Assembly (NCBI GenBank): GCA_048882045.1
Contig: JBHLRZ010000052.1
Coordinates: 1 to 16,083 of the forward strand
From: Candidatus Thorarchaeota archaeon
GTDB lineage: Archaea; Asgardarchaeota; Thorarchaeia; Thorarchaeales; Thorarchaeaceae
Length of the DNA stretch: 16,083 bases
Direction: 5' to 3'
Both the position numbers and the translations under genes were made by a program. Under the pieces are notes generated by a model, which searched no databases, was not told the origin of the DNA, and was given only the letters and a program-made list of their open reading frames with translations. Below are positions 4,337-7,541 of this stretch, one piece after another. Position 1 is the stretch's first letter; each line of letters begins with the position of its first letter.

Positions 4337-4702
4337 TCAGAGGTCTTTCAGTAGACCATCCGGATCATCGAAAGCACCCATTCTTAAAGGAGCATCACCA
4401 TGAAGACAGTAGTGAGTATGTGTTATGAACATCTCACGTGCTACTGAGCATTTCTTGCAGAGACAATCTCGTTCCTCAGAGATTCGTGAACTCTGACCGC
4501 TATGGCAGAATTGAAGTCCCAGATTTTCTAAAGAGGACTCTTTTGACACATCCCATCCAAGACTTCTGTAGTGTGCTTGAGATTCCTCGATTGCACGAAT
4601 GAACGTTGAACATTCATGACATTGACACATGGCTGATCTCTGACGCATAGCAGCATTCCATTCTGCAGGTTTCATTCCCATAGCCCGCTCAAACCGTTCC
4701 AT
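4337..4702 (-). CDS. DUF2769-like Cys-rich metal-binding protein
   Basis: The Cys pattern CQCHEC ... FCHSGQS ... CLCKKC.V ... HYC..G matches the archaeal DUF2769 layout. It converges on the phosphorylase stop with a 2-nt gap. Confidence 0.75.
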   Translation of the reverse strand: MERFERAMGMKPAEWNAAMRQRSAMCQCHECSTFIRAIEESQAHYRSLGWDVSKESSLENLGLQFCHSGQSSRISEERDCLCKKCSVAREMFITHTHYCLHGDAPLRMGAFDDPDGLLKDL

Positions 4703-4770
4703 CCTGTGACCTCGATGATATGTGTTCTAATTCAGAGTTTATGTCTTGCGTCACGGTTCCTGAGTATGTA

Positions 4771-4810
4771 TTTATATATCATGGAACAAGTAACCTAAAT
4801 ACTTATATAT
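4771..4810. promoter_or_regulatory. Candidate divergent archaeal TATA boxes
   Basis: TTTATATA (4771-4778) and TTATATAT (4803-4810) sit in an AT-rich stretch between the DUF2769-like gene (-) and the micro-ORF region (+). Confidence 0.5.
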
Positions 4811-4886
4811 TGTAATACGTAACACAAATACAAGCAAGCCGAAAGCGTTGGAGAACAATGCTGGGGTTTGGAGGATGTGAAACACA

Positions 4887-4994
4887 ATGGCTGAACATCA
4901 TAAGAAACACAGGCTTTCCGAAAGGAGAGGTAGCGGGCTCAGAACTCTGAAGTCCCTTTACCTGGAACACACAACGGGAAGTGAGTTGCAATAA
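4887..4994 (+). CDS. Putative 35-aa basic micro-protein (MAEHHKKHRLSERRGSGLRTLKSLYLEHTTGSELQ); may instead be a leader peptide or non-coding structured leader
   Basis: Hand-translated. ATG at 4887 is preceded by SD-like GGAGGATGTGA (4870-4880), and TAA at 4992-4994 abuts the SD of the next ORF. It overlaps a predicted RNA structure. Confidence 0.4.
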   Translation: MAEHHKKHRLSERRGSGLRTLKSLYLEHTTGSELQ

Positions 4995-5008
4995 AGGAGG
5001 AAAAGTAA

Positions 5009-5104
5009 ATGGCACTAGCAAAAAGCAAGCAGGCAAAGAGAATCAAGACCAAGAGGATTCAGTCAACTGAAGCCTTGGCCTATGCATATCTCTACAGACG
5101 TTGA
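5009..5104 (+). CDS. Putative 31-aa basic micro-protein with Tyr-rich C-terminus (MALAKSKQAKRIKTKRIQSTEALAYAYLYRR)
   Basis: Hand-translated. A strong SD (AGGAGG, 4995-5000) lies 8 nt before ATG 5009, the stop is TGA 5102-5104, and a strong hairpin follows. Confidence 0.6.
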   Translation: MALAKSKQAKRIKTKRIQSTEALAYAYLYRR

Positions 5105-5141
5105 TCATTATAACTCACAGCCATTGTGTGCTCTTGGATCA

Positions 5142-5179
5142 TGAGGATGTGACCGCGTACGGCTCCGCGGTCACCCTCA
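5142..5179. terminator. Strong hairpin between convergent micro-ORFs (3' stabiliser or terminator-like)
   Basis: TGAGG-(AT bulge)-GTGACCGCG / CGCGGTCAC-CCTCA, 14 bp with an 8-nt loop, followed by T-rich CTTGTTTTGGAATTTT on +. Confidence 0.55.
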
Positions 5180-5270
5180 AACTTGTTTTGGAATTTTAAT
5201 ACAATAGAGTTTGAGAGAATAGAGTGGAGGAGCATGTCCACCACCCTATCCGAATTCGACCAGAGGATAG

Positions 5271-5372
5271 TTACCTATCATATCGCGTATGATAGGCTGC
5301 AGACATGCCTGTACGGTTCTTCTGAGTTGGGAGTCTTCTCCATTTTTTGATGGATCCTTTCTCACTTGCCAT
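5271..5372 (-). CDS. Putative 33-aa basic micro-protein (MASEKGSIKKWRRLPTQKNRTGMSAAYHTRYDR)
   Basis: Hand-translated on the - strand. SD-like AAAGGTG(TG) lies shortly upstream of ATG 5372 and TAA ends at 5271. It is co-oriented with, and 128 nt downstream of, the radical SAM gene. Confidence 0.5.
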   Translation of the reverse strand: MASEKGSIKKWRRLPTQKNRTGMSAAYHTRYDR

Positions 5373-5431
5373 TTCAGCACACCTTTACGTAAGTACTCTT
5401 GTTGAAAGAATATTATTTCACAGGCTATGGC

Positions 5432-5482
5432 GACTTCGGAAAAGAGGCCGATTGATGAAAGCAGAGTCCGATTTCCGAAGTC
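5432..5482. repeat. Perfect 11-bp inverted repeat with 29-nt spacer
   Basis: GACTTCGGAAA (5432-5442) / TTTCCGAAGTC (5472-5482), immediately 3' of the radical SAM stop codon. Confidence 0.8.
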
Positions 5483-5500
5483 ATGATTTAGGAAAACGGA

Positions 5501-6598
5501 TTACATGAATCTCCGCATCATCTGTTCAATCAGATTGTCGATGTTTTCCAAGTTCACATTGTTCTCAGCCATGATATGACTGATACGGGTTCTTCGAGAG
5601 ATATCATCCAGGTCATCCAAGCTTGTTAGCGCACCGAGTCGCCTACCAAACCTGTACAACATCTGTTCTTCCTCCTCCAAATCAAGGAACCTCTGCAGAA
5701 TTGATATCATCTTCCCCTTGTCATCCGGTAGCTGCCCCTTCAAGTCTGCGAAGAGGTTCAAGATGTGATCGCTGACGAGATAGCTCGAAACATCTTCCAG
5801 ATGCTCAATGAAAGTCAAAAGTTCCTTGACAATCTCAATGTCATTGCAACGGTCGAATTCTCCAGAGATCATTAGTTCGTACAGTGGTGCTCTGACTGGG
5901 AATGCTAGGGGACGAAGACGGATGAAGTCAGGATCAATCTGATTCAAAGCATCTGCAGATTCGATGGCATGTTCTTGTGACAGACTCATTCCACCGAGTC
6001 CGGGCATGAAGTATTCGGATACTTCCATTCCAGCCTTCTTCACTTTCAGACCAGCCAGAACATGAATCTTTTTTGATGCGCCTTTCCTAACCATCTTCAA
6101 AACATTATCTGAACCAGACTCCAATCCAACATGGATTCTTGATAGTCCAGATTCAGAGAACGAGGTCAAGTCGTCCACGCTCATTTTGTTGATAGTGGAA
6201 GACCGCGAGTAAGAGGTGATACGCTCAATATTCGGAAACTTTTCTCCAAGATGATTGAGTATCTGAATCAAGTCTTTTGGTCCAATCACCAAAGCATCAG
6301 AGTCCTGAAGAAAAACAGACTTCATTCCAAGACTGGTCCAGCGCATTGCAGAGTCATATGCTAGAGGTTCTTCGATGACAAAATCATTCTGAGGAGACTC
6401 AAGAAAAGCAACATATTCGGCAATGTAGTCAATGTCTCGAAGTACATGTTCCAGAGGACGAACTGAAAACTCGGCATCCTTGTATACTGGACAGAAAAGG
6501 CAGCGATTCCATTCACAGTTTCGCGTCACGCGAACCAAGAGACTTGAAGCTTCACTTGGTGGTCTTATCGGACCCATTTCATAGCGATATTCGAACAA
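5501..6598 (-). CDS. Radical SAM protein (IRPPSEA / CX4CX2C family, function unknown)
   Basis: Motifs GPIRPPSEASSLLVRVTRNCEWNRCLFC, VFLQDSD, RIHVGLESG, YFMPGLGG and SDHILNL. The ORF track starts at GTG 6631. A GGAGGT SD just after the upstream stop favours TTG at 6598 (365 aa). Confidence 0.9.
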   Translation of the reverse strand: MFEYRYEMGPIRPPSEASSLLVRVTRNCEWNRCLFCPVYKDAEFSVRPLEHVLRDIDYIAEYVAFLESPQNDFVIEEPLAYDSAMRWTSLGMKSVFLQDSDALVIGPKDLIQILNHLGEKFPNIERITSYSRSSTINKMSVDDLTSFSESGLSRIHVGLESGSDNVLKMVRKGASKKIHVLAGLKVKKAGMEVSEYFMPGLGGMSLSQEHAIESADALNQIDPDFIRLRPLAFPVRAPLYELMISGEFDRCNDIEIVKELLTFIEHLEDVSSYLVSDHILNLFADLKGQLPDDKGKMISILQRFLDLEEEEQMLYRFGRRLGALTSLDDLDDISRRTRISHIMAENNVNLENIDNLIEQMMRRFM

Positions 6599-6614
6599 AC
6601 GACATGACCTCCAG

Positions 6615-7541
6615 TCAATATCCTGCTTCACGAATCATATCATCAAGCATTGTTTCTGCATAATACTTGAACTTCTTGTTGGAGTATGACACCAATGTTG
6701 TCGTGGATTTGACGAAGGTTTGACAACGAATATGCCGTGCAATCTCCTCAGCCTGATGGAGGTCATCTACAACAAACTCAGCGAAGATGACAGGATCTGT
6801 TGCTGATACGGTAGGGTCCCACAACTCTAGTGGATATTCCGCTTTTAGCCACTTGACAACTTCGTTCAAAGTGGTTTCGTCCTCGTTCAACTCTAAACGC
6901 ACGTAGAAGTTTACAAGACCACCTGCCGCTGTGTCAGGCCTGGTAGAGAAGATTACACCTCCATCTTCCATAAGTTCCCGGATTCCCCGTCTAACTGTCT
7001 TAGCAGCAAGTCCTGCTTCTTGAGCAATTTCAGAAATCAGAGCGCGGGGATTCTTCTGAAGAACAGCAAGTATTCTGAGGTGAAGATTGGCAAGGTCAAC
7101 CTTTCGTCCCATGCGCCAAAGGATTGTATGAAGCTCAACATCTTGTACCGTTGACGGATGACGGAGGAATTTTCTAAGGTCGGACAACATAGAAGATCCA
7201 ATATATTGTCCCCAGAGGAGATATGCTCCACCCACTGCGCTTGCGAGTAGGCTGATATGACCAACCATTTCATTTTCGCCCATGTACTTCAGGAATTCAT
7301 CTATATCCTCAGTCCCATCGGTTATGACTAGAGCCATGAAATATTCTGCATTGATCATAGCAGCATCAAGGGAAATGGCAAATCTCGATATTGCTCCGCT
7401 GTCAAGTAAAGCTGAAACCCTATTCTTCACAGCATTGGCACTTAGCCCAGTCTTCTTTGATAGGTTTTCATAGCTGACTCTGCAGTTTTTCGAAATTTCT
7501 GTCAATATCATTTTGTCAACAGGATCCAATACTGTGCCCAC
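6615..7541 (-). CDS. Tandem (two-module) Lrp/AsnC-family winged-helix transcriptional regulator
   Basis: Two HTH modules (LDPVDKMILTEISKNCRVSYENLSKKTGLSANAVKNRV; LHLRILAVLQKNPRALISEIAQEAGLAAKTVRRGI), each followed by a RAM-like alpha/beta domain. Confidence 0.88.
   Translation of the reverse strand: MGTVLDPVDKMILTEISKNCRVSYENLSKKTGLSANAVKNRVSALLDSGAISRFAISLDAAMINAEYFMALVITDGTEDIDEFLKYMGENEMVGHISLLASAVGGAYLLWGQYIGSSMLSDLRKFLRHPSTVQDVELHTILWRMGRKVDLANLHLRILAVLQKNPRALISEIAQEAGLAAKTVRRGIRELMEDGGVIFSTRPDTAAGGLVNFYVRLELNEDETTLNEVVKWLKAEYPLELWDPTVSATDPVIFAEFVVDDLHQAEEIARHIRCQTFVKSTTTLVSYSNKKFKYYAETMLDDMIREAGY

Follow-up and report, generated by a model that had tools for sequence, protein, structure and literature searches.

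Alpha/beta small acid-soluble spore proteins are tiny, tightly regulated, nucleic-acid-binding proteins with multiple dispersed genes, and leaderless multi-peptide bacteriocins such as aureocin A70 and garvicin KS come from operons of tandem, translationally coupled genes for similar cationic peptides of ~30 aa, sometimes beside a transporter gene. [quoted passage not shown] In haloarchaea, the 5' and 3' mRNA ends are reported to set translation jointly, by a mechanism that was unknown (PMC2636863).

The locus analyzed here, with a bicistronic unit (ORFs A and B) and a facing single-gene unit (ORF C), shares features with each of these. Like type I toxin mRNAs, the A-B mRNA carries ORFs of about 30 aa, occurs in dispersed copies and has stem-loops at both the 5' and 3' ends, and a distant 3' element is predicted to pair with the translation start region. 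Unlike them, it is bicistronic and archaeal, its pairing lies over the AUG and not the SD, and its peptides are hydrophilic with no hydrophobic 15-mer; as the peptides fail this hydrophobicity test, we did not class the locus as a type I system. The family of ORF B could be analogous to the alpha/beta spore proteins, being multicopy, dispersed, tiny and tightly regulated, with nucleic-acid binding as the putative shared property, although its members are half the size, form one helix in place of a two-helix fold, lie in tandem coupled arrays and have no Pfam match. We know of no sporulation in the Thorarchaeota host. Arrays of B genes resemble the aureocin A70 and garvicin KS operons in their tandem, translationally coupled genes for similar cationic peptides of ~30 aa that sometimes stand beside a transporter, but they come without a dedicated ABC exporter or immunity gene, their products have low hydrophobicity, and the family is nearly universal in Thorarchaeaceae whereas leaderless bacteriocins are patchy. 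As in haloarchaea, both ends of the A-B mRNA seem to be involved in control; unlike the haloarchaeal case, a predicted direct base-pairing between them is supported by covariation.

Three small coding genes in two putative transcription units

The window, meaning the whole stretch of DNA that was analyzed, is the entire contig C52 (16,083 nt) of a 93%-complete genome of 3.6 Mb (G000). Its gap at 4703-5500 has a DUF2769 gene on one side and a radical SAM gene on the other, and ahead of the radical SAM gene come the genes of a double Lrp/AsnC regulator and of a 150-aa protein carrying a putative zinc ribbon. The original prediction had placed three ORFs in this gap, each starting Met-Ala, rich in Lys and Arg and preceded by an SD-like motif, with a TATA box ahead of the plus-strand pair. 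Coordinates and Met-Ala starts were verified for A (35 aa), B (31 aa) and C (33 aa), as were the basic composition (K+R of 7/35, 9/31 and 9/33, respectively), the SD-like motifs (4870-4875, 4996-5000 and 5380-5385) and the TATA box, which we located at 4801-4810. Four residues of ORF A are acidic, and in most of its orthologues the N-terminus is acidic. The two units had further been said to converge on a 14-bp hairpin; this hairpin exists, as 9 + 5 bp around a 2-nt bulge, but it is not common to both units: it belongs to A-B, and the C unit has a conserved hairpin of its own. The features of the locus are as follows.

4790-4810, plus strand: BRE/TATA promoter core of A-B, better conserved across the genus than the rest of the gap
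4811-4825, no strand assigned: palindromic operator between the TATA box and the inferred transcription start, consensus TGTAATA-S-TATTACA, degenerate in the window
4835-4870, plus strand: 5' stem-loop immediately ahead of the SD of A, a predicted fold whose arms co-vary in relatives (by eye)
4882-4893, plus strand: 5' arm of the putative long-range duplex, a 12-nt perfect inverted repeat that includes the start codon of A
4887-4994, plus strand: ORF A, upstream-type peptide with the core LRTL[DE]SLYYDY in most orthologues, eroded in the window
5009-5104, plus strand: ORF B, main-type member of the multicopy basic peptide family of Thorarchaeaceae
5118-5129, plus strand: 3' arm of the putative long-range duplex, in the 3' UTR, starting 14 nt past the stop of B
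5142-5179, plus strand: A-B 3' hairpin followed by a U-rich tract, the stem kept and the sequence changed in relatives without C
5215-5253, minus strand: 3' hairpin of the C unit, conserved after C in seven genomes whichever gene follows
5271-5372, minus strand: ORF C, 33 aa, basic, ending in YxxR[YF]DR, probable distant relative of B
5373-5500, minus strand: block of ~130 nt that moves with C, including its SD and a possible weak BRE/TATA (5409-5421)
5501-6631, minus strand: radical SAM enzyme with PF04055 only, probably not a maturase
6615-7541, minus strand: double Lrp/AsnC-type HTH regulator, the constant partner of C

As a control for chance, ORFs of 28-40 aa with an ATG-Ala start, at least 18% K+R and an SD-like motif (criteria chosen after the three ORFs had been seen) were counted: the gap holds three, against none in 1999 of 2000 dinucleotide shuffles and one in the other shuffle. 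The whole 3.6-Mb genome has only nine such ORFs, six of which belong to the families described here. An alternative ORF at 4858-4950 was rejected, its frame not being maintained in relatives.

The three ORFs are genuine coding genes under purifying selection, which upholds the proposed unannotated small-protein locus. Orthologues of all three retain start, stop and frame, third codon positions are the most variable, and synonymous change exceeds non-synonymous change in the orthologous intervals, with pooled Nei-Gojobori dN/dS of 0.55 for A (19 sequences; pN<pS in 147/171 pairs), 0.21 for B (153/153 pairs) and 0.29 for C (14/15 pairs); these pairs are not independent, and their direction is uniform. 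The idea of one system of three genes found no support: the histories of A-B and C are separate, and the two are neighbors only in G000 and its sister genome G004. The best explanation is that they are two small transcription units encoding members of one lineage-specific peptide superfamily. In the same two genomes the DUF2769 gene (4337-4702) and the A-B promoter point away from each other, separated by 100 strongly conserved nt that include a second TATA-like tract near 4770-4779.

A multicopy family of basic peptides

ORF B matches its family profile with E values of 1e-16 to 3e-11. Profile searches recovered the family from all 28 genomes of the genus and from 75/76 Thorarchaeaceae genomes, with 1-15 matches each; the 224 other Asgard genomes that were searched gave none. 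G000 carries nine copies (B and eight paralogues). The family consensus reads MAL(A/T)(K/T)N, followed by a basic linker and [ST]T[ED]A[LIV]xYAYxYRR. Members form arrays of tandem, similar, cationic, leaderless peptides in which the terminal Arg-Arg-stop also serves as the SD of the next ORF, and which often finish with an acidic ORF of 34-41 aa overlapping a hairpin. All 75 matches among 1.84 billion proteins were 29-103 aa long, and the 13 longer or odd ones that we inspected were N-extended, fused or read-through forms. No match to the peptides was found in Pfam, NCBIfam, Rfam, PDB (by sequence and fold) or ESM Atlas, no relative on viral contigs and no description in literature searches, and the few named database members are called 'hypothetical'. 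By these searches the B family is undescribed and found only in Thorarchaeaceae, and its small size explains why annotation missed it, even though it is in essentially every genome of that family.

AlphaFold predicts that B has a disordered half and a single helix (residues 20-29). Histone-fold and PIP-box look-alikes were discarded, by reasoning alone, as generic helix caps. The family has a mean net charge of +5.6 and no hydrophobic segment; the best 15-residue hydropathy is -0.18 for B and averages 0.12 across the family, and GRAVY values of the peptides run from -0.7 to -1.5. These properties bear on whether the peptides could be toxic or antagonistic, either type I toxin-like with a 5'-3' RNA lock or leaderless multi-peptide bacteriocin-like and exported by MFS proteins. 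Their size of 30-35 aa, dispersed copies and cationic character would suit such a role, and about 12 of 88 arrays have an MFS gene behind them, in some cases just 6 nt past the last stop; most arrays, including the one in the window, have no transporter gene, and a transmembrane-type segment is absent. On this evidence, together with that of the RNA structures below, we regard a toxic or antagonistic role as distinctly unlikely.

Several observations concern the arrays themselves. At the junction of the last basic ORF and the acidic terminal ORF (L024:5219-5345 and 34 other array ends), the stop was TAG in 31/35 cases and the ORFs were in frame in 29/35, compared with 23/61 and 26/61 at basic-to-basic junctions. 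In five database proteins the two ORFs are fused, with Gln at the basic-acidic junction, probably from an alternative-code gene call, and amber read-through at these junctions is possible; pyrrolysine read-through was unsupported, as neither PylS nor an amber tRNA was found in G000. Spacers within some arrays (L021:5310-5450, L022:5250-5390) contain reversed copies of the operator half-site, in the form of GGTCAC repeats, and are conserved as DNA, not as reading frame, so that DNA looping or an RNA hairpin is possible. Five near-identical arrays at dispersed sites of a single genome (L086-L090, G068) suggest recent spread or gene conversion.

ORF C tracks a regulator, not the radical SAM enzyme

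ORF C has exactly 33 codons in seven genomes and three metagenome contigs. Its upstream block does not differ in length or motifs between loci with the regulator upstream and loci with the radical SAM gene there, and presumably acts as its promoter. C lies between regulator and radical SAM gene in four genomes and after the enzyme in three, and on one contig it follows the regulator with the enzyme not directly behind. The regulator accompanied C at 8/8 independent C loci, while at 10 loci that keep the enzyme beside the zinc-ribbon gene both regulator and C were absent; from this co-occurrence and joint absence we infer that C tracks the regulator and not the enzyme. Other double-Lrp paralogues in G000 had neither a C-like ORF nor the upstream block.

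This pattern weighs against the suggestion, part of the original prediction, that the peptides are modified-peptide precursors. As RiPP precursors they would carry Tyr cross-links introduced by the adjacent radical SAM enzyme, in keeping with the position of C next to that enzyme in seven genomes and with YxY and ExxxY patterns in B and A. The enzyme, however, is of a common stand-alone type (at least 6556 homologues) that is found in 51/86 family genomes, in most of them with C absent, and Pfam and NCBIfam detected no SPASM/Twitch or RRE domain in it and no NCBIfam model at cut-off. Across the 88 family loci a leader/core split, a peptidase and a constant maturase were all absent, and the E and Y positions are variable. 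Since C travels with the regulator, and no maturase follows the family, we consider RiPP maturation very improbable.

Scored with an anchored matrix alongside 18,800 background ORFs, 7/7 C sequences ranked in the top ~1%. One of them, the most divergent (G041), has a B-type beginning and outscored all background ORFs, the other C sequences being marginal, and a profile-profile comparison of C with B (hhalign) was not significant; on this sequence evidence the balance leans modestly toward common ancestry of C and B. A possible link between the two types is a 37-aa ORF in a B array of G000 (C34:14550; L025:5051-5164), which starts like B and ends like C. The final codons of C (5270-5300, minus strand) fold into a small hairpin, one pair of which is compensated in three genomes, and the end of C may thus be constrained as RNA besides as peptide. 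An 11-bp perfect inverted repeat upstream of C (5432-5482) is not kept as such in relatives.

The A-B cassette, its operator and its repressor

Clear orthologues of A were found in 19 genomes of the genus, G000 included, directly upstream of a B wherever examined, and A-like ORFs occur under the same operator in three other genera (by eye). The core of A aligns with that of B, and intermediates occur. With the anchored matrix, 15/19 A sequences were within the top ~1% of the background ORFs (most at 0.01-1%), the A of the window having p 0.29, and the A-to-B profile-profile comparison (hhalign) was not significant; common ancestry of A and B is probable.

The usual site of the cassette is beside an unclassified 110-aa gene. 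G000 retains a copy there in which A is shortened to a stub of seven codons, so A is dispensable. The window copy groups with that of G004 on a long branch, which, with the persistence of the usual-site copy, indicates that a second copy of the cassette landed beside C. Elsewhere, an A-B-B cassette in G052 (L217:2057-3812) is divergent to a small GTPase and roadblock-type gene pair (by eye), and G080 (L219:3280-3810) has two tandem A-like ORFs, each with its own operator, ahead of a B.

A promoter matrix scored strongly in G000 only at the A-B site and the paralogous C4 site. The exact operator consensus was present in 51/86 family genomes, compared to almost none for a reversed-pattern control, and in 19 of 30 loci examined the operator precedes the gene of a ~112-aa ribbon-helix-helix (RHH)-like protein. 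This protein has weak sequence matches to NikR, AbmR and CdrS and weak fold matches to NikR, ParD and PrpA, which are mostly ribbon-helix-helix proteins. The A-B operator is therefore probably shared with an autoregulated RHH-like repressor. The same operator was seen at ARPP-1 domain genes (L250, L251, L260, L270, L275 and L213), twice divergent to the RHH-like regulator; the ARPP-1 copy in G000 looks truncated (181 aa versus about 330).

Arrays of B genes have at least three classes of operator, two of which differ from the A-B palindrome, and the oldest array is divergent to a PadR-like HTH gene. Class I operator-promoters (sites L207:1600-3014, L209:852-2470, L208:1-2570 and L206:1299-2540; contigs C21 and C7 in G000) also head genes for bactofilin-domain, MFS-like, large GNAT and unknown 365-aa proteins.

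This diversity of operators, and the PadR-like neighbor, could be expected if the peptides were protein-binding modulators whose conserved helix docks on a regulator or a large machine, with paralogues in different regulons serving one target; C might act on the double-Lrp protein, and B on a transcription or proteolysis factor. Docking helices typically have an Ala/Tyr face, and C and its regulator are together at all eight independent C loci. Control of the C promoter by that regulator would explain their co-occurrence equally well, and the penultimate Tyr of an HbYX proteasome activator tail was present in just 8/60 members, so that protein modulation seems to us doubtful.

A predicted duplex between the start codon of A and the 3' UTR

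The two arms of the long-range duplex appear to join the start codon of A to the 3' UTR. Across 17 cassettes, 90% of duplex cells pair and two-sided changes occur in 4/9 pairs; the covariation score was reached by no shuffle, and slid registers collapse. Compensatory changes are present in G017/G003, G015 and G012, some duplex changes alter the second or third codon of A, and lineage-specific extensions lengthen the duplex to about 17 bp. In 18 genomes, cognate arms had a mean pairing energy of -20.4 kcal/mol versus -15.7 kcal/mol for non-cognate arms. Full-length partition-function folds of ten relatives predicted that adding the 3' UTR lowers the unpaired fraction of A's start from about 0.5 to 0-0.17 in seven of them and hardly alters pairing at the start of B. 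For the window, the start of A was 0.03 unpaired if the RNA ends at 5135, versus 0.47 at full length, where other folds compete. The covarying duplex would bury the start of A but not that of B. The hairpin downstream (5142-5179) may act as terminator or stabilizer. A further candidate hairpin inside A (about 4935-4957) was discarded, covariation being absent.

A duplex over a start codon recalls type I toxin mRNAs (PMC6733600, PMC8594479) and is a point of likeness for a toxin. Yet this lock covers A and not the more conserved B, neither the remaining arrays nor A-type cassettes from three further genera showed a consistent equivalent, and no conserved antisense promoter was seen in the alignment (by eye).

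Another reading is that A, and perhaps C, is mainly a cis-acting leader ORF, through which ribosome traffic opens or closes the RNA and whose peptide matters little. A is under the weakest constraint of the three genes. Where it is cut to seven codons its start persists, together with the 3' arm and the 5' hairpin, and in four genomes the SD of the radical SAM gene lies directly next to the C hairpin. The core motif of A is nevertheless retained across four genera, C still has 33 codons after its move behind the radical SAM gene, and B has a strong SD of its own and would be left unexplained; a leader role is quite improbable.

Regulation and possible function

We tentatively favor, with a probability of about 0.42, inducible intracellular peptides whose basic tail and short Tyr-rich helix would attach them to RNA, DNA or ribosomes. 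The RHH-like repressor would keep A-B off until induction. The finished mRNA may then fold back, hiding the start of A and leaving that of B open, which would make B the main product. Translation of A would be limited to the time until the 3' arm is transcribed and to moments at which a ribosome at the stop of B melts the duplex. A distance of 10-14 nt past a stop is near the edge of a terminating ribosome, and the 3' arm lies at this distance from the stop of B, so unlocking of A by that ribosome is conceivable. C would be expressed from its own promoter under control of the adjacent double-Lrp regulator. The peptides would remain inside the cell and be needed in bulk, which could account for the many gene copies. 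Their disordered Lys/Arg tail may contact RNA, DNA or ribosome while the capped helix docks via its conserved Ala/Tyr face, during a stress or growth-phase program. This reading draws on the conserved frames and dN/dS values, the range and copy number of the family, its positive charge and missing hydrophobic segment, the predicted disordered half and helix, the small size of all database matches, the operator with its regulator, the duplex, and the finding that no constant enzyme or exporter recurs among the 88 family neighborhoods. Against it stand the acidic N-termini of many A orthologues, the dispensability of A, the competing folds of the full-length window RNA, the non-significant profile comparisons and the weak matches behind the RHH assignment. 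The regulatory anatomy is well supported by the comparative evidence, and the peptide function is a guess.

A bolder and unlikely extension of the favored reading is that these tiny basic peptides, family-wide and spread over several regulons, are an unrecognized chromatin or ribosome component, and that the A-B mRNA sets the ratio of its peptides by 'reverse coupling', in which a ribosome finishing the downstream ORF B would unlock the upstream start of A through the 5'-3' RNA duplex. Our searches found no report of such coupling for archaea. The peptides are short enough for synthesis, making binding tests cheap even without a cultured host. For translation control in archaea through the 5' and 3' mRNA ends, the covarying duplex would provide a concrete base-pairing model.
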